DNA from: Corynebacterium glutamicum ATCC 13032
GTDB taxonomy: Bacteria; Actinomycetota; Actinomycetes; Mycobacteriales; Mycobacteriaceae
NCBI RefSeq assembly: GCF_000011325.1
Contig: NC_003450.3
Location: forward strand, 3,090,001-3,122,000
Direction: 5' to 3'
Length of the DNA: 32,000 bases
Notes under the pieces: model-generated
What the model was told of the DNA's origin: nothing
Seen by the model: the letters and a program-made list of their open reading frames with translations, nothing else
The model's database searches: none
Position numbers and translations under genes: made by a program
Part shown: piece by piece, positions 7,769 to 22,321 of the stretch
Position numbering within the stretch: the first letter of the stretch is position 1
Layout: each line of letters opens with the position of its first letter

Positions 7769-7786
7769 AACGCCTCATTAGGTGCA

Positions 7787-7899
7787 CAGACCAAGAACCC
7801 CTAAAAAGTGGGCGTCCTTGGTCTGAAACAGCAGTTTCCCAAGCCTAAAAAACGTCGTTTCGGACCAAAGACCCACCAAAAATCCGAGCCTTTGGTCTC
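7787..7899 (+). repeat. 113-bp extragenic repeat, copy A. It has four GACCAA/TTGGTC units that form two hairpins.
   Basis: The four units are CAGACCAAG, CCTTGGTCTG, CGGACCAAAG and CTTTGGTCTC. It aligns end to end with 15864-15976 at the same length and in the same orientation. Confidence 0.8.
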
Positions 7900-7901
7900 A
7901 A

Positions 7902-8573
7902 TTACTCCTGCCATGGCAGTGGGCTGTCAGTCCAGCGCACAACATCCCATTGGCTGAATTTCTTACCGTTTGGCTCCAGCACCACGAAGCGGCAGTTGCC
8001 CAGGTAGGTGTTGAACGCAAAGTTGGGATCCACACCAGTTGCGTGTGTTGCCACGATGCGGATGACGGCGCCGTGGCTGACAACGGCAACGTCGCGGTCG
8101 TCGTCAAGGTCGTGGCTGTCCATGATTCGATCAAGAGTCGGCTGGTAGCGGTTCAGCACGTCTTTGTAGGTCTCACCGCCGGGAAGACCAGCGGCAGGAT
8201 CCCCGTGAAGCCAGCCGTTGAGTGCGCGGGAGTAATTCATGTGGGCTTCTTCATCGCCGCGCATTTCAAAGTCGCCGACGTTGATTTCCTGAATGCCTTC
8301 CACAACGTCGAGTGGAATCGCACCGGACTGCATGTCGCGAGCTTTTTCAAAGGTAGAGGTGGCAAGCACGGCGGTTTGTTGGGCGCGCAACACGATGGAG
8401 CTGTACACATGGGCGAGGCGCTCACCGGAGTAGGTGGCTAGTTCGTGGCCAACTTCAAGGGCTTGTTTACGGCCCAGGTCGGTGAGTTCAGCTCCTGGTG
8501 GGCGGGTGTCCAGGAGGTGTTTGACGTTGTTGTGAGTCTGCCCGTGTCGTAGCAAAATAATCCGGCCGGCCAT
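7902..8573 (-). CDS. Histidine phosphatase (phosphoglycerate mutase) family protein
   Basis: The 223-aa ORF has an N-terminal RHG motif (IILLRHGQTHNN) and a later VSHGAVIR motif. Confidence 0.88.
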   Translation of the reverse strand: MAGRIILLRHGQTHNNVKHLLDTRPPGAELTDLGRKQALEVGHELATYSGERLAHVYSSIVLRAQQTAVLATSTFEKARDMQSGAIPLDVVEGIQEINVGDFEMRGDEEAHMNYSRALNGWLHGDPAAGLPGGETYKDVLNRYQPTLDRIMDSHDLDDDRDVAVVSHGAVIRIVATHATGVDPNFAFNTYLGNCRFVVLEPNGKKFSQWDVVRWTDSPLPWQE

Positions 8574-14436: not shown

Positions 14437-15723
14437 ATGCGCCTCAACAAACGACTCCCAGCGGCACTCTCCGGACTGCTGCTCTCTGCTGCCCTTCTTG
14501 CCGGATGCTCCACTTCTGGAACCGCCGAGACCACGACAACAACCGTTTCATCTGCTGCGGCATCAACAACCACTTCCACCTCCTCTGCTTCGTCTTCCTC
14601 TTCCTCCTCCTCTTCCTCCTCTTCCTCCGACTCAAGCACCACCGCCGAAACCATCTCCAACACCGCGGAAGCTGCCCAAGCTTTCTTGTCCACCCTGTCC
14701 ACCGAAGAACAAGACGCCGTACTCTACGACTACGACGCCGAAGAAAAGTCCACCGGCTGGTCTAACTTCCCAGTCACCTTCGTGCAGCGTTCCGGCGTGA
14801 ACCTCACCGACCTCACTGAGGAACAGCAAGCAGCTGCCCTCAACGTGCTGAAGAACCTGCTCAACGACGACGCCTACCAAATGATCGAAGACATCATGGC
14901 TAGCGATCAGTACCTCAACGACGAAAGCAACACCACCGAGGATTCCCTCGGCCAGTACTACATCGCATTCTTCGGCGATCCAAGCAGCGACTCCGACTGG
15001 TCCATCCAATTCGGCGGACACCACATCGGCATCAACACCACCTTCTCCGACGGTGCCATCACCTTCGCCCCAACCCACCTTGGCACCCAGCCTTCCGAGT
15101 GGACCAACGAGGACGGCGAAACCGTTGCAGCACTAAGCAACATGTACGAAACCGCCTTCGCCTTCTACGACAGCCTCGCCGAAGAGCAGCAAGCACAGCT
15201 CTACCAGGGTGAAGAGTTGGATTCCATGGTGTGCGCACCGGGCAGCACGTGCGACTACCCAACCGGCACCGGCTTGAAAGGCTCTGACCTCACCGATGAG
15301 CAAAAAGAATTGCTCATCGATGTCATCGCAAACTGGGTTGGCCTCGCCGATGAGGAAACCACCGAAACTGAACTCGATGCCATCCGCGAAACCCTGGATG
15401 ACACCTACATCAACTGGTCCGGCGCCACCGAGTACGACACCTCCACCGGCGACGGCATCTACTTCCAGATCAGTGGCCCAAAGGTCTACATTGAGTTCGC
15501 TAACCAGCAAGGTTCTGCAGGTGCCGACATCGACGGTGTCATCACCGCTGGATGGGGCCACATTCACACCATCTACCGCGACCCAACCAATGACTACGCT
15601 AACTCCGTAACTCAGGAAGCAGCCAGCGGAATGATGGGCGGCGGCCCTGGTGGTAATGGTGGCGAGATGCCTAGCGGTGACATGCCTACTGGTGAGATGC
15701 CTTCTGGCGCTCCATCAAACTAA
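14437..15723 (+). CDS. DUF3500-family lipoprotein with a Ser/Thr-rich linker and a Gly/Pro/Met-rich C-terminal tail
   Basis: The start is at MRLNKRLPAALSGLLLSAALLAGC (lipobox LAGC). The DUF3500 hallmarks FGGHHIG and YFQISGPKVYIEFANQQ...GWGHIHTIYRDPTNDY are present. The track start at 14407 is a non-ATG extension. Confidence 0.88.
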   Translation: MRLNKRLPAALSGLLLSAALLAGCSTSGTAETTTTTVSSAAASTTTSTSSASSSSSSSSSSSSSDSSTTAETISNTAEAAQAFLSTLSTEEQDAVLYDYDAEEKSTGWSNFPVTFVQRSGVNLTDLTEEQQAAALNVLKNLLNDDAYQMIEDIMASDQYLNDESNTTEDSLGQYYIAFFGDPSSDSDWSIQFGGHHIGINTTFSDGAITFAPTHLGTQPSEWTNEDGETVAALSNMYETAFAFYDSLAEEQQAQLYQGEELDSMVCAPGSTCDYPTGTGLKGSDLTDEQKELLIDVIANWVGLADEETTETELDAIRETLDDTYINWSGATEYDTSTGDGIYFQISGPKVYIEFANQQGSAGADIDGVITAGWGHIHTIYRDPTNDYANSVTQEAASGMMGGGPGGNGGEMPSGDMPTGEMPSGAPSN

Positions 15724-15863
15724 CGCCATTTAAGAGGCCGAACCCGTGAGACGAGCATTTACATCACCTCACGGGTTTGGATCCCTCAGAGGCGATTCTG
15801 TGAAGTCGGTTTCTGCTGGGCCCAGGTCAGTTTCTCCAGGCGGTTAGCATTGGAGAGGCGTTT

Positions 15864-15976
15864 CAGACCAAAAGCGCTCGGGTTCTTCCGATCCTTGGCC
15901 TCGAATGACAGTTTCCACGCCTACAAAGTGCTGTTTCAGACCAAGAACCCCACTTTTCGACTGGCCCTTTGGTCTC
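15864..15976 (+). repeat. 113-bp extragenic repeat, copy B. It has the same orientation and length as copy A.
   Basis: The four units are CAGACCAAA, CCTTGGCCTCG, TTTCAGACCAAG and CTTTGGTCTC. The shared blocks with copy A include CAGTTTCC..GCCTA.AAA and GTTTC.GACCAA. Confidence 0.8.
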
Positions 15977-15996
15977 TTTTTCAAGTCCACCCACAA

Positions 15997-17710: not shown

Positions 17711-18078
17711 GAACCCATCTCTCCTGGCCTTTATATACCTGCTATCGACTCTAGTATCCCTCCAAACCACCAGCCCCGCAGCGTGAACGGAAATAAATAC
17801 ACTGCACTAATTTTGTGATGCAGATTACTTTTTCTTTTCACGACCTAGCAAGGATCTACGAGGAAAATGTCCGGCGGGTTAGATGAAGGGATTTTTGAGG
17901 AAGCCGGATACAATCCCAATACAGCAATCGATTGCATAGTTTCTTAAGAGGGCTTGATTGTGGCTTTACCGCCCGATCGGGGTATGAAAATTCCGACCAG
18001 AAGCGCCAGTAGAAGTAAATTATTCAGTGATAACCATTGGGTATTAAGAAATTTGTGGCTTAGATCTCAATTTCTGTA

Positions 18079-18094
18079 TAGTTTGATCATACTA
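18079..18094. promoter_or_regulatory. Candidate GntR-type operator overlapping a TATAGT -10-like box upstream of gntP
   Basis: TAGTTTGA/TCATACTA is a 16-bp imperfect palindrome (7 of 8 per half) lying 38-53 nt upstream of the gntP ATG. TATAGT is at 18077-18082. Confidence 0.35.
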
Positions 18095-18131
18095 ATTCAT
18101 CCACTTCCAAATTTTCACGAAGGATCACCCC

Positions 18132-19523
18132 ATGGACACCTGGGAACAAACCCTTGGAACAGGGCCACTGCTAGGCATTGCAGCCGGCGCCATTGCCCTC
18201 ATCTTGGTTCTCGTCATCGTTTTTAAACTCCATGCTTTTCTCACCCTAATACTGGTTTCAATTGTTACCGCACTTGCTGCCGGCATTCCCGTCACCGCAG
18301 TAGTGGACACTCTCCTTGACGGTTTTGGTAAAACACTCGCCTCGGTCGCCCTATTGGTAGGCCTGGGTGCCATGCTTGGTCGATTGGTTGAAACATCCGG
18401 TGGCGCAAAATCTCTAGCCGACACTATGGTGCGAATCTTCGGTGAAAAACGAGCAGCTTTCGCACTCGGTGTCGCATCGCTGATCATGGGATTCCCTATC
18501 TTCTTCGATGCTGGCCTCGTGGTCATGCTCCCAGTGATCTTCGCAGTAGCTCGACGCCTCAACGGCTCCGTCCTTACTTTTGGTATCCCTGCAGCTGGCG
18601 CCTTCTCTGTCATGCACGTGTTCGTCCCACCTCACCCAGGCCCAATTGCAGCCTCTGAATTCTTCGGCGCACAAGTTGGATACGTACTAATCGCTGGCAT
18701 CATCGTTGCACTACCCACCTGGTATTTAACCGGTTACCTGCTAGGTAAGTTCTTAGGCCGAAAGTTCCCCCTTCCCGTACCCGATCTACTCAGTGGTGGA
18801 GCACAGGAAGATGATCAGCCTCAGAACCCAGCTAACGCAGTGTCGATCATTGTCATTTTGCTCATTCCTATGCTCCTTATTTTTGGCAATACCGGAACAT
18901 CAATGGCAGTTTCCGCCGGCCTCCTAGATGCAGAATCCACCATGGTGAAAATTCTAGGATTCCTCGGCGAAACACCAGTGGCACTGCTCATTACCTTGAT
19001 CATTGCCCTGTTCTTCCTAGGCAACCGACGTGGCATTAATGGTTCTGCTCTAGAGAAAACCATCGAAGGCGCACTCGGCCCAATCTGTTCAGTCGTATTA
19101 ATCACTGGCGCCGGTGGCATGTTCGGTGGAGTGCTACGCACGTCTGGAATTGGAGGAGCGCTTGCAGACTCCATGGCAGATCTAGGACTTCCAGTTATCG
19201 CAGGTTGTTTCATCGTGGCAGCCGTCCTTCGTGTCGCGCAGGGTTCTGCCACCGTTGCGCTAACCACCGCCGCAGCACTCATGGCACCTGCTGTTGCCGC
19301 TGCTGACTTTAACGAATTCCAGCTTGCTGCCATCGTTATTTCCACTGCCGCTGGTTCTGTTATTGCCAGCCACGTCAACGACTCCGGATTCTGGCTCGTT
19401 GGTCGACTCATGAACGCCGACGTACCCACCACGCTAAAAACTTGGACCGTAAACCAAACCTGCATTGCGATTGTGGGATTTGTGATGGCCTATGCAATGT
19501 TCGGATTGGCATCGCTTGCATAG
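18132..19523 (+). CDS. gntP: Gluconate:H+ symporter (GntP family permease)
   Basis: This 463-aa polytopic membrane protein has a GntP-family sequence throughout. A GAAGGA RBS lies 8 nt upstream of the ATG. Confidence 0.93.
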   Translation: MDTWEQTLGTGPLLGIAAGAIALILVLVIVFKLHAFLTLILVSIVTALAAGIPVTAVVDTLLDGFGKTLASVALLVGLGAMLGRLVETSGGAKSLADTMVRIFGEKRAAFALGVASLIMGFPIFFDAGLVVMLPVIFAVARRLNGSVLTFGIPAAGAFSVMHVFVPPHPGPIAASEFFGAQVGYVLIAGIIVALPTWYLTGYLLGKFLGRKFPLPVPDLLSGGAQEDDQPQNPANAVSIIVILLIPMLLIFGNTGTSMAVSAGLLDAESTMVKILGFLGETPVALLITLIIALFFLGNRRGINGSALEKTIEGALGPICSVVLITGAGGMFGGVLRTSGIGGALADSMADLGLPVIAGCFIVAAVLRVAQGSATVALTTAAALMAPAVAAADFNEFQLAAIVISTAAGSVIASHVNDSGFWLVGRLMNADVPTTLKTWTVNQTCIAIVGFVMAYAMFGLASLA

Positions 19524-19550
19524 TCCGCTGACCCCATTGATTCACAGGCT

Positions 19551-19685
19551 TTAAGTTCGAGACCTTAACTGCGATTTCTTATTACCGAGACCGGTCGATT
19601 TCGGGTGATAATCCGACTGAAATCGGTGTTAAGAAATTGAGCTTGAGGTCTTAGTAATGTGGTATCGAACTTAAGAAATCGCCCT
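19551..19685 (+). repeat. Left arm of the long imperfect inverted repeat bounding the gntP-pyk2 island
   Basis: Three blocks at 19551-19578, 19613-19642 and 19664-19685 are reverse-complementary to 20415-20442 (25/28), 20323-20352 (25/30) and 20266-20287 (22/22). Confidence 0.85.
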
Positions 19686-20265
19686 CTGTCGTCAACGTAC
19701 TCAGAGCCCTTCTAAGGCGTCGAAAATCTGCGATGAGCATAGGTATGGATAGGGCCAATAAAGAGGCTTAGAAGCAATTCTGGAGCCTCATGTTTTTTGG
19801 GGTCGGGCTCCAAAAATCTCTCCACCCAGTCGAAACCAAACATACGTGACAAAAATACTGAAAACCCTGCAATTTTGGTACCTATGTTTGGTTTATCTCG
19901 CCCTCAACCAGCCCTCAACCAGACAGGGAGGACAAGAATCTGGGAAAACCCAAATCCTTGTCACCCATGTTTGGTGCGAGCCGAACCAGGGTGCCCGCAA
20001 TCCTTGAAGATCCAAATGTTGGGCATCTGTTTCCGACCCCAAGCCGAAACCGTCCTATATGGCCAAGCAGAGATGAGTTTGAAGTTCGTTGGTCACCTGG
20101 TTTGGTCGAGGAGCAAAGAATGAAAAATGGCTTTAGGCTCACAAAAAGGGACCTCACAGAATCGCTCCTAAGGGTTTTTAATGTGAGGTCAATACCAAAA
20201 AGCTCCCTCCAGATTTACAAGACTTTAAAAGCACTCTGAGGGGCTTAGGGATTTGGGAGTTGTTA

Positions 20266-20442
20266 AGGGCGATTTCTTAAGTTCGATTTCGTATAACCGC
20301 TACCTTGATTCCAATACCTTCCGCTCAATTTCTCATTTCCAATTTCAGTCGGAAAAGCGCTCAAAACTGACTGGTATCTAACCTGAGAAATTGAGCGCTC
20401 GAAACTGTAAACGTGAAATCGCTGTTAAGATCTCGAAGTTAA
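20266..20442 (-). repeat. Right arm of the long imperfect inverted repeat. It carries an extra internal 14-bp perfect inverted repeat.
   Basis: The block matches are listed under the left arm. The additional inverted repeat is CGCTCAATTTCTCA (20322-20335) with TGAGAAATTGAGCG (20384-20397). Confidence 0.85.
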
Positions 20443-20461
20443 CGCCAATCGCCTTTGTGAG

Positions 20462-22321
20462 TTACTCTTCCCAGCTCTTCACCTTGCGCAGCAGCAGCCT
20501 ACTCTTTCGTTGGGATGCACCAAGTTTGCGGCTCATTTCGGTGAGGACCTTGATGGCGTCGTTGATGTGTGGTCCCTTGTTCAGCATGACGCATTCAGCG
20601 CGAAGTGCCATTGCTGCGTCGGTGATTTCTGCGCGAGATGGGAGTCCGTTTTTGGCCATGTTTTCCAGGACTTGGGTGGCCAAGATGGTTGGGACGTGGG
20701 CGGCTTCGGCAAGGGCCATGATCAGTTGGGGGACTTCTGCCATGCGGTCGAAGCCGAGTTCGACGGCGAGGTCTCCGCGGGCGATCATGATGCCGAAGTT
20801 TTCGTGGCGCATGCCGGTCAGGAGGATTTGGGCGAGGCCTTCGTAGCCTGGGATGGTCTCGATTTTAAGGACGAGGCCAAGGCGTTCGACGGCTACTGGA
20901 TCTCCGATGTCGGCGAGTGCTTGGAGGAGGTATTCCACGTCGGCGACGTTTCGGATGAAGGAGATGGCTGCGATGTCGGCGTATTTGACGACAAAGCGCA
21001 GGTGTTGGAGGTCTTCTTCAGTGAGGCTTGGGAGTGGAAGTTCGGAGTCTGGGAGGTTGATTCCCTTGTATGCGGCCAGGTTTACGCCTTGTGGGCGGGC
21101 GTGGGTGACTTCCAATTCTACGTCGTTGTGGCCGTCGGCAGTGGAGGTCTTGTCGATGCAGACTGCGGCGATGGCTCCGTCGTCGAAAAGCACGCGGTGC
21201 CCGACTTTAATTGCATCGACTGCTTGTGGAAGGGTGCAGCTGATGCGTGGTGTGCGGCCGGATCCGAGGGATGGATCGTAGGTGAGTTCTTCGTCGGTAA
21301 GGATGAGGCGGTCGCCGACTTTGAGGTTGATGCGCTGAACTACGGCGGGGATGCCGTAGACCCGGGAGCGGTCGTAGTTGTGTTCCAGGAGGGTGCCGTT
21401 GGAGATGTAGGCTTTTTGTGGGCCTTCGGCGAGGACCGCGCCATCAAAAACCCTGGTCACGGTGAATGCTCGGCGGGATCCGCGGGTGTCTGGGACGTTG
21501 ATGACGCTGCCGATTTCTAGTTTGTCGAACCATTCTGGGGTGACTTCAATCGGCAGAGCGGGGCGACCGGGCAGGCTTTCGGGGGCTGGGACTGGTTCGG
21601 AGCCGTGGGCGGTGATCCACAGTTTTGCGGGCGTCAGTACTTTTCCGGTTTCGTCGCGGGTTACTCGTGCGCGACCTACTTCTGCGCCTGGGGCGATTTC
21701 GCCGGTGCGTACTTTTGGTCCGGCGAGGTCCATGCTGACGCGGATTTCCCGGCCAACTTCTTCTGCAACGGTGTGGACGTTGTCGATCATCTGCTTCCAG
21801 ACGGTTTCATCGTCGTGTGCACAGTTGATGCGAGCTAGATTCATGCCGCTTTTGGCGAAGCCACGGACAAGTTCAATGTCGGTGGCGGCTTCGGTGGGCA
21901 GGGTGACCATGATGCAGGATGGAGTATCCGGTAGGGGTTCGCCAAGGAGAATTTCGGCGTGCTCGTCGAGAATCTCATCGGCATCTTCGAAGGCATCGAC
22001 GACATCTGAGGGTGGATAAAGTGGGCCTTCACCTGCGAAAGCTCCGATAACATTGCGGGCGGCCTTGAGGCGGGCCTGCACTGCTGGTTCGGTGGTAGTC
22101 AAGCGGGTAGCTCCCACAGAGGAGAGGCGTTGCTGCAGGCCACGGAGGTCTTTGGTGCGAAGATGCGCGTAATGCATGAGGTTGCGGGCACCAACGTAAT
22201 GGGTTGGGGAGACCTGCCCGATGGCCTCGCTGTGAGTTTGTGTCACCTCATCAAGTTCTAGAATTAACTCGTCGAGTTCAGTCTTGATCTCCTGGAGAAT
22301 GTCCTGGTCAAACTCATTCAT
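20462..22321 (-). CDS. pyk2: Pyruvate kinase-like protein with noncanonical architecture
   Basis: The 619-aa ORF keeps the PK catalytic motifs ARINCAHD, DLAGPKVRTG, KIETIPG, MIARGDLAVELG and ATQVLENM. It also has a ~135-aa N-terminal extension, an insert of about 240 aa where the B-domain sits, and no C-terminal allosteric domain. An AAGGAG RBS is present. Confidence 0.9.
   Translation of the reverse strand: MNEFDQDILQEIKTELDELILELDEVTQTHSEAIGQVSPTHYVGARNLMHYAHLRTKDLRGLQQRLSSVGATRLTTTEPAVQARLKAARNVIGAFAGEGPLYPPSDVVDAFEDADEILDEHAEILLGEPLPDTPSCIMVTLPTEAATDIELVRGFAKSGMNLARINCAHDDETVWKQMIDNVHTVAEEVGREIRVSMDLAGPKVRTGEIAPGAEVGRARVTRDETGKVLTPAKLWITAHGSEPVPAPESLPGRPALPIEVTPEWFDKLEIGSVINVPDTRGSRRAFTVTRVFDGAVLAEGPQKAYISNGTLLEHNYDRSRVYGIPAVVQRINLKVGDRLILTDEELTYDPSLGSGRTPRISCTLPQAVDAIKVGHRVLFDDGAIAAVCIDKTSTADGHNDVELEVTHARPQGVNLAAYKGINLPDSELPLPSLTEEDLQHLRFVVKYADIAAISFIRNVADVEYLLQALADIGDPVAVERLGLVLKIETIPGYEGLAQILLTGMRHENFGIMIARGDLAVELGFDRMAEVPQLIMALAEAAHVPTILATQVLENMAKNGLPSRAEITDAAMALRAECVMLNKGPHINDAIKVLTEMSRKLGASQRKSRLLLRKVKSWEE

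Follow-up and report, generated by a model that had tools for sequence, protein, structure and literature searches.

The 32,000-nucleotide stretch of the Corynebacterium glutamicum ATCC 13032 chromosome studied here (NC_003450.3, positions 3,090,001 to 3,122,000; hereafter the window) contains a 938-bp spacer, at 19524-20461, between two convergent genes. On its left is gntP, which encodes a gluconate:H+ symporter (18132-19523, plus strand; TIGR00791, 370 bits), and on its right is pyk (cg3218), which encodes a pyruvate kinase of the PRK14725 type (20462-22321, minus strand; NF011314, 851 bits). The window is of the ATCC 13032 type, and GntP and Pyk proteins identical to its own are found in many NCBI C. 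glutamicum genomes. The original prediction, made from the letters of the window, described the spacer as a gene-free, lower-GC island bounded by long imperfect inverted repeats and offered three explanations, namely, a non-autonomous element with terminal inverted repeats that resembles a MITE (miniature inverted-repeat transposable element), the carcass of a larger mobile element, or a long fold-back structured RNA. Our analysis shows that the spacer is a single degenerate palindrome made of two inverted copies of one non-coding module, and we consider it likely that it is the empty site of the ans (L-asparagine) operon, left when the two copies were joined tail to tail.

The descriptive part of the original prediction is borne out. 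The spacer is the largest gap in the window that is free of open reading frames (ORFs), the runner-up measuring 474 bp, and its G+C content is 45.6%, compared with 55.3% for the window; the count of 43 G+C reported for positions 19801-19900 is exact. The three ordered inverted blocks are real and lie where they had been placed, including a perfect 22-mer, and the recurring 18-mer occurs twice in the window against 0.01 occurrences expected by chance. The palindromic island is thus confirmed and is non-random. In agreement with the statement that no known RNA is recognizable, an Rfam scan of the spacer (E up to 10) gave no match near threshold, the highest-scoring models, of eukaryotic miRNAs, reaching 26 and 19 bits where 80-91 are required. 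A Pfam search with the four longest ORFs of the spacer returned no match, no transposase remnant was detectable in the spacer by tblastn or in the Pfam search of its ORFs, and blastn of the spacer against plasmid and phage collections found nothing. The locus is neither single-copy nor unchanged in all relatives, as a missed gene might be; it is polymorphic among strains, and paralogous copies exist.

Two Inverted Copies of One Module

The inverted relationship extends through the interior of the spacer. When the sequence between the arms is divided at its middle, 19686-19978 aligns with the reverse complement of 19979-20265 at 160 identities over 266 aligned positions (60%, z = 6.1 against shuffles), and the direct-orientation control stays at shuffle level. 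Because the interior is inverted-homologous as well, the whole spacer consists of two copies of one module, not of terminal repeats around a cargo. It is one degenerate palindrome of ~900 bp that contains no unique cargo. The left (L) copy occupies 19547-19976 on the plus strand and reads in sense from the gntP stop codon, and the right (R) copy occupies 19977-20446 on the minus strand and reads in sense from the pyk stop codon. A profile of five module copies matches the window at 19525-19980 (E = 2e-130) for the L copy and at 20459-19918 (E = 7e-114) for the R copy. The inner ends of the two copies meet at 19973-19981, the center of the palindrome, and it is here that relatives carry the ans operon.

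Each module is ~430-470 nt long, begins 15-23 nt past the stop codon of the adjoining gene, and presents its parts in the same order in the sense of that gene: an arm (A), a stem-loop with a U-tract (T), and two further hairpins (H-H). The five copies, which come from three genomes, align collinearly over their full extent, outer end to inner end, as judged from the alignment and from the profile matches, and gene calling in all module copies (nine C. glutamicum loci, C. suranareeae, and strain R) yielded no genes. The L copy, with its arm, terminator-like hairpin, and two hairpins, folds better than shuffles (z = -3.7). It also includes an 11-bp tandem repeat, GCCCTCAACCA, at 19900-19922, which is present in two copies in the window and in most strains. 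Among close strains of the 13032 type, the spacer differs only by this repeat (two versus four copies) and by two single-nucleotide polymorphisms; strain CP041729 (locus L003) is the one with four repeat copies, and it also has the two spacer polymorphisms.

The ans Operon in Relatives

Orthologous loci, cited below by L numbers, were retrieved through Pyk and GntP homologues. In C. suranareeae the order is gntP, L copy, a 4.7-kb ans operon, R copy, and pyk, and the two inverted non-coding copies are 78% identical to one another over ~390 nt. Its gntP-side copy (L024 17490-17122) aligns with window 19524-19892 at 78-79% identity over 369 nt with no indels, and its pyk-side copy, which starts at the pyk stop codon, is 66-69% identical to the R copy of the window. 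In C. glutamicum strain R, gntP is followed by a spacer of 115 nt with a plain terminator and then by the ans operon, and an R copy of 524 nt separates the operon from pyk. The short spacer behind gntP with its terminator is common to C. deserti, and the spacer between ansP and pyk (L026 16204-16635) is 81% identical to window 20046-20461. The genes of the operon are co-oriented with gntP and code for a GntR regulator of the FadR type, an asparaginase II family protein, aspartate ammonia-lyase (aspartase), and an L-asparagine permease-like protein; they correspond to ansR-ansA2-aspA2-ansP, the experimentally characterized ans operon of strain R (PMC9145765). ATCC 13032 has no ans operon and does not grow on L-asparagine (PMC9145765), so that the absence of ans from this strain is already published. 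Searches of the spacer with the four operon proteins (tblastn) revealed no remnants (all E > 0.05), and the window has no AnsR operator.

C. deserti, C. callunae, and a metagenomic relative (L020) all lack the repeats and yet have the operon at the identical position between gntP and pyk. Since the operon is present at this site in repeat-free species, its presence is ancestral and the arrangement in ATCC 13032 is a deletion. The junction can be followed in the window: homology to the C. suranareeae L copy stops near 19976, clear homology to the strain R copy begins at 20046, and a degenerate R-type hairpin lies between. The missing segment corresponds to ~4.7 kb of C. suranareeae sequence and to 4.8 kb of strain R sequence. 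Taken together with the tail-to-tail arrangement of the copies, these boundaries make the empty ans site the probable identity of the 938-bp island. If so, the largest gene-free gap of this region in the main industrial amino-acid producer is explained as the site where the type strain lost the operon with which strain R grows on L-asparagine.

The inverted repeats around the operon might instead be decayed insertion sequences, the island being what remains of a composite transposon or genomic islet that carried ans. Repeats of ~450 nt in inverted orientation do flank the operon in C. suranareeae, and the operon is variably present among strains and species, as such an islet would be. However, the operon sits at the gntP-pyk site with no repeats in the three relatives named above, no copy has ORF or transposase similarity, the terminator-like hairpins face the outside genes, and the T-H-H part recurs past unrelated genes. 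The composite transposon is thereby already largely refuted, and we regard it as extremely improbable. The proposal of a carcass of a larger mobile element comes closest among the three explanations first offered and is partly supported: something larger has indeed been lost, but it was the chromosomal ans operon and not a mobile element.

The ans operon has also decayed independently elsewhere. In a relative whose Pyk is ~80% identical (L022 11771-14155 and L023 are the metagenomic loci concerned), aspartase and asparaginase are each encoded by a gene broken into two ORFs, an Nramp gene lies past pyk, and gntP is missing.

Sequence Conservation of the Arms

The left arm (19547-19685, plus strand) is an imperfect palindrome of 14-nt units, TTAAnnnCGATTTC forward and GAAATCGnnnTTAA reverse, arranged around an apical stem GTCG..CGAC. 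The right arm (20266-20446, minus strand) has the same unit architecture with three extra 14-nt units, which enter the alignment as one insertion of 28 nt and one of 14 nt, the exact lengths of two units and of one. The outer block (19547-19578 versus 20415-20446) is 88% complementary, the inner block (19631-19685 versus 20266-20320) takes in the perfect 22-mer, and a gapped alignment of the left arm with the reverse complement of the right arm has 75% column identity. The 22-mer, ATCGAACTTAAGAAATCGCCCT, lies at 19664-19685 in the left copy and is the perfect reverse complement of 20266-20287; it is found with no more than one mismatch in all five copies from the three genomes. The motif TTAANNNCGATTTC has five exact matches in the window, all of them within the spacer. 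Among the copies, arm length varies from 140 to 185 nt, each arm is itself palindromic, and the apical stem has the five-copy consensus AGTCGG...CCGACT.

Several comparisons show how well the arms are kept. In the comparison of C. glutamicum with C. suranareeae, identity at four-fold degenerate sites is 60-64%, and the parts of the left copy reach 88% (arm), 75% (middle), and 60% (first hairpin). The arm (71-88%) is better kept than the remainder of the module (44-76%) in 10 of 10 copy pairs, and the right arm is 87% identical to the strain R arm. Judged from these identities, the arms are constrained in sequence and kept well above neutral. The constraint does not appear to act on a hairpin. 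The two halves of an arm are only ~67% complementary to each other; RNAalifold found only two compensatory pairs in the arm hairpin and a positive covariation term, that is, essentially no covariation; and a strand-neutral count of G-U-compatible versus A-C mismatches in the arms gave 23 versus 16, which is not significant (p = 0.34). The weak complementarity of the halves, the lack of covariation, and the lack of G-U asymmetry together suggest that the sequence of the arms, rather than their hairpin shape, seems to be what is kept. The sense fold is more stable than the antisense fold in four of five arms. Selection at the RNA level on the arm hairpin was nevertheless dropped as evidence, given the missing covariation and the non-significant asymmetry.

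A sequence kept in this way could be a protein target, and the arms could be arrays of sites for a DNA-binding protein (for example, a regulator, a recombinase, or a nucleoid-associated protein) that mark the borders of the ans region. Each arm carries three to four forward and four to five reverse copies of C(G/A)ATTTC at 14-nt spacing, and, as noted, its sequence is kept far above neutral even though its halves pair poorly and do not covary. Against this proposal, the AnsR operator is a different sequence, and a spacing of 14 bp keeps the sites off a single face of the helix. No experimental data on binding to the arms were found in the literature searched. To our knowledge, the motifs of attC sites, the LexA/SOS box, GntR1/2, GlxR, parS/dif, and Tn7- or Mu-type ends fit the arms poorly, and these candidates were set aside; we also know of no C. 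glutamicum regulator to which the arm motif belongs. We consider a role as binding arrays quite unlikely.

The arms might also be the ends of a mobile element. As a non-autonomous MITE or foldback element, the whole 938 bp would have inserted between gntP and pyk, with the repeats serving as subterminal sites for transposase binding. Long inverted arms with repeated 14-nt motifs would be expected of such an element, and TTAA is present in their outer ends, as first noted, but it lies inside the arms and does not flank them. The left copy occurs in 13032 and C. suranareeae and is absent behind gntP in strain R and C. deserti, and the contig of one metagenome-assembled genome (MAG) breaks inside the right arm, both of which are compatible with insertion. 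The sequences just outside the arms, gattcaca (19539-19546) and aatcgcct (20447-20454), have no direct repeat in common, so there is no target-site duplication, a point on which the original prediction was correct. The 580-bp core that it placed between the terminal repeats does not exist as a separate entity, since the interior is inverted-homologous and leaves no room for unique cargo. Both arms are, moreover, orthologous to two separate copies that in C. suranareeae flank a resident operon at a distance of 4.7 kb from each other, and the copies are old, at 72-77% identity between types.

In the sequence covered, searches for further arm copies also gave no support for mobility. An arm profile run over 143 kb (the window and related loci) found nothing outside the gntP and pyk copies, and plasmids and phages contained none. 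The 22-mer pattern had no match in a metagenome scan, and the outer-block pattern had two, in a GC-rich coding region with no wider similarity, which we attribute to chance. Viral scans gave one chance match in AT-rich phage DNA for one pattern and none for a second. A scan of a whole-genome collection with the 18-mer returned five chance matches in unrelated MAGs and did not return the known C. glutamicum and C. suranareeae loci, so that it leaves copy number unaddressed. Two k-mer-assembled Logan contigs, of 87 and 108 kb, pass through the spacer unbroken, which argues against long, nearly identical copies elsewhere, while more diverged copies are still possible.

The origin of the arm may be visible in C. 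callunae. Directly past the pyk stop codon of that species (L013 6862-6941) lies an 80-nt palindrome, AGGTCTCGAAATCAC...GTGATCTCGAGACCT, that contains the arm motifs TCGAGACC and CGAAATC. This palindrome may be a short ancestral form of the arm, and its position with TCGAGACC past pyk suggests that the arm arose in place; the similarity hints that it grew from a pyk terminator. With these observations on the other side, insertion of a MITE is very unlikely.

Hairpins of the Module and Their Dispersed Copies

Past the arm, each copy presents a hairpin of terminator form. In the L copy this is GAGGCUUAGAAGCAAUUCUGGAGCCUC (19763-19789) followed by U6 (19793-19798), so that the element spans 19763-19798 on the plus strand, in sense to gntP (RNAfold -14.3 kcal/mol, z = -2.5). 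In the R copy it is GACCUCACA...UGUGAGGUC (20190-20150), followed by CC and U5 (20147-20143), spanning 20143-20190 on the minus strand in sense to pyk (-14.2 kcal/mol). The columns GCGATTCTG and the T-run are kept in all module copies, and the strain R stem homologous to the right T hairpin retains its pairing through a G-U change. The T hairpins have the form of intrinsic terminators, with a stem and U5-6 on the sense strand, and their position is kept in five of five copies. A simple promoter and terminator scan of the spacer gave no promoter-like site and missed these T hairpins, which have bulges or large loops and were later found by folding.

The two H units of the left copy lie on the plus strand at 19833-19894 (H1, ACCAAAC...GTTTGGT; -17.7 kcal/mol, z = -3.6; E = 1.8e-10 with an H-unit profile) and at 19917-19976 (H2; -32.4 kcal/mol, z = -5.9; E = 3.4e-11). 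Those of the right copy lie at 19981-20107 on the minus strand, where 20047-20107 is clear (E = 9.5e-7) and 19981-20027 is degenerate (E = 0.0023); a profile of the H-H dimer matches 20112-19976 with E = 5e-23. An H unit is ~60 nt long with a 22-bp stem bounded by ACCAAAC...GTTTGGT, and the members of a pair stand ~73 nt apart. We examined covariation in a set of 13 units from four genomes over the 22 pairs of the stem. Paired cells amount to 75.9%, as opposed to 65.5% in shuffles, none of which (0 of 500) reaches the observed value, and 30-42% when the partners are slid; double compensatory changes occur in 13 of the 22 stem pairs. This excess of pairing and these compensatory changes indicate that the shape of the H hairpin is under selection.

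The T-H-H part is found outside the gntP-pyk spacer as well. An armless paralogous copy lies at 15723-15993 (plus strand), directly past the stop codon of a plus-strand DUF3500 gene, in a convergent spacer. As an independent test we used a profile built solely from the five gntP/pyk copies. It matches the corresponding DUF3500/DUF5926 spacer of two other genomes, with E = 6e-17 for strain R (L026 7519-7763) and E = 2e-8 for C. suranareeae (L024 21036-21262), and in the window it gives a weak match at 15747-15828 (E = 0.006); alignment of the copies shows blocks common to these spacers and the gntP/pyk modules. A probable, shorter hairpin pair, GACCAAG...CTTGGTC twice at a distance of 74 nt, lies at 7776-7903 (plus strand) in a third convergent spacer and is joined by a homologous linker. 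A profile from which this stretch was withheld matches it marginally (window 7901-7789, E = 7e-4). Later strong profile matches at 15723-15993 and 7776-7903 (the latter with E = 1.2e-12) are circular, as these stretches were in the training alignments. The pattern GACCAA-N12-42-TTGGYC has five distinct sites in the window against 0.37 expected, all within the three convergent spacers. Hairpin pairs are thus found in three spacers of the 32 kb (7776-7903, 15853-15989, and 19828-20112), and each T-H-H copy lies in sense to the gene whose stop codon precedes it.

The same gntP/pyk-only profile finds T-H-H on the gntP side of the gntP-pyk spacer of C. crudilactis (E = 9e-13). That spacer (L011 6858-7221) is 364 nt long, with no ans operon and no arm, its T-H-H faces gntP, and an 18-nt tandem repeat (CTTCAGAA...) lies beside pyk. 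From their distribution, the H hairpin pairs look like a small family that is dispersed, within the C. glutamicum clade, over the 3' ends of convergent genes. In the literature searched we found no description of a repeat family or a small RNA at the gntP-pyk locus.

Transcripts across the Spacer

Published transcriptome data could be placed on the spacer with the relation genome coordinate (BX927147) = window coordinate + 3063306, for which the published start and 5' untranslated region of cg3218 served as anchor. In the tables of Pfeifer-Sancar et al. the spacer has a plus-strand RNA of 575 nt, named "cg3216 x cg3218", for which neither a start site nor a -10 region was detected (PMC3890552 Table S7). 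Its listed sequence begins ttgagcttgaggtc, which is window 19637, and it covers 19637-20211 (genome 3082943-3083517). The 5' end therefore falls in the 3' strand of the left-arm stem, and the 3' end lies 20 nt past the hairpin at 20150-20190. Table S9 of the same study lists a bidirectional terminator predicted by TransTermHP at 3083230-3083275, or window 19924-19969, which is within H2 (PMC3890552). Mentz et al. report neither a small RNA nor a start site within the spacer (PMC4046766).

The position of this RNA could be taken to mean that the core encodes an independent, structured 575-nt RNA, with the arms as processing or protection structures. The placement of its two ends by a stem and a hairpin, the folding of the left copy, and the covariation of the H hairpins are all in keeping with such a gene. 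The lack of a start site and of a -10 region, its absence from the dedicated small-RNA study, and the lack of an Rfam match are not. At 60% identity the hairpin part of the left copy changes as fast as neutral sequence, and, because the 575-nt RNA spans a junction made by deletion, it cannot be an ancestral gene. An independent RNA gene is therefore unlikely in our view. The fold-back RNA of the original prediction can be kept in part: the spacer is packed with hairpins, two of which covary, and it is transcribed on the plus strand, but the transcript lacks its own start site, and covariation is missing from the arm hairpin. The simplest reading is that the 575-nt RNA would be read-through from gntP that ends just past the hairpin of the right copy, possibly after processing within the left-arm stem.

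A further transcript is known from the neighboring gene. Mentz et al. (2013) describe the antisense RNA cgb_32165, with a SigA promoter, in the 5' part of gntP (region of window 18194; genome 3081541, minus strand).

Proposed History of the Locus

From these comparisons we infer an order of duplications, a deletion mechanism, and a terminator function. The pyk-side module would be the older of the two, and it, or its T-H-H part, would have been copied in inverted orientation behind gntP. In the lineage of ATCC 13032, everything between the inner ends of the two copies would then have been lost. The likely route is repeat-stimulated excision, in which long inverted repeats may bring the ends of the operon together during replication or repair. 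The modules themselves could serve the convergent genes as long 3' untranslated regions that act as terminators and insulators.

Several observations weigh against this account or parts of it. The order of events is drawn from just three genomes that carry copies, and the pyk-side copy of C. suranareeae groups with the L-type rather than with the C. glutamicum R copies, so that gene conversion or crossover between the inverted copies must be invoked. No clear microhomology can be assigned at the ends of the deletion, because both ends carry the same inverted sequence. Strain R, which supplies one of the undeleted arrangements, is not a simple ancestor. Strain R matches ATCC 13032 at 97-98% identity in pyk and ldh (pyk 97.9% at the DNA level) and at 92-95% in the region upstream of gntP, whereas gntP is 80.9% identical in DNA and 95.9% in protein (window 18016-19513 versus L026 9885-11382) and the R copy is 81% identical. 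This deep divergence of gntP and the R copy next to similar flanks marks strain R as a recombinant haplotype and not a direct ancestor. The function assigned to the modules also meets difficulties in the published data. The TransTermHP site was scored as "no significant termination" for gntP and "insufficient coverage" for pyk (PMC3890552), and the plus-strand RNA runs through the left U-tract hairpin. To these we add the missing covariation and G-U asymmetry of the arms and the uninformative 18-mer scan described above.

The right edge of the diverged gntP tract lies ~50 nt inside the right arm. C. glutamicum has two segregating classes of GntP allele, and the diverged tract suggests introgression or an old polymorphism. 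The R-type GntP resembles the proteins of C. deserti and C. crudilactis more closely than it does the 13032 allele.

A more far-reaching version of the empty-site account would treat the A-T-H-H modules as a clade-specific family of "terminator cassettes", once or still mobile, which land in sense at the 3' ends of genes and which, as inverted pairs, make an accessory operon cleanly excisable. The arms, with their TTAAnnnCGATTTC arrays, would then be a previously undescribed cis-element that might be bound by a protein or else cleaved by an RNase specific for double strands, with the 575-nt RNA as the released product. We give this extension a small but appreciable chance.

If the empty-site reading is correct, the locus offers a natural example of an accessory operon that was bracketed by long inverted repeats and deleted between them, which bears on genome stability and on strain engineering. 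The analysis also provides two leads: paired, structure-selected hairpins at convergent 3' ends and a conserved long palindrome of 14-nt units.

Comparison with Known Repeats and Terminators

Precise and nearly precise excision of Tn10 and Tn5 is a RecA-independent deletion that is promoted by long flanking inverted repeats. The present locus is similar in that the segment between long inverted repeats is gone, the breakpoints are at the inner ends of the repeats, and the repeats are joined as a palindrome. It differs in that the repeats are not the ends of insertion sequences, the lost segment is a resident operon, and both repeats are kept almost entire; the mechanism here is one that we infer.

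The H units resemble the repetitive extragenic palindromic (REP) elements and bacterial interspersed mosaic elements (BIMEs) of enterobacteria and pseudomonads, as they are imperfect palindromes with selected stems that occur in clusters and pairs at extragenic 3' ends in transcribed regions, often between convergent genes. They are longer, however (~60 nt with 22-bp stems), they form fixed pairs ~73 nt apart, and they are found at three loci in 32 kb. REP elements have GTAG or CGTC heads and an associated RAYT transposase. Neither head is found at the start of any of the 13 aligned H units, which begin with (A/G)ACCAAAC, and the units are not known to have a RAYT gene.

The arms can be compared with the enterobacterial repetitive intergenic consensus (ERIC, or intergenic repeat unit, IRU) and BOX elements, palindromes of imperfect, modular build that lie in transcribed intergenic DNA. 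The arms too are imperfect palindromes, placed just past stop codons, and their length varies by one or two whole 14-nt units, which recalls the copy number of boxB. Unlike ERIC and BOX, which are multi-copy, the arm is found at one locus in the sequence searched, and it has no sequence similarity to these elements and no Rfam match. Like intrinsic and bidirectional terminators, each module has a stem with U5-6 in sense, and further hairpins lie between the convergent genes. In contrast to such terminators, the modules are far larger and have a conserved long palindrome upstream, and published coverage shows read-through. The literature searched contained no description of the repeat architecture, of the hairpin-pair family, or of the conserved arms.

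Two further observations concern the surroundings of pyk and ldh in the retrieved loci. In C. callunae (L013 326-864), a ParE toxin and a PhdYeFM antitoxin are encoded as a pair inserted near a flavodoxin-like gene upstream of ldh; this pair is not present in the C. glutamicum window. In the Logan assembly of SRR15901615 (L009 1-1600), the gene of a sugar transporter of the major facilitator superfamily stands beside pyk, at the place usually taken by ldh, and this accession is probably an engineered strain in which ldh was replaced.

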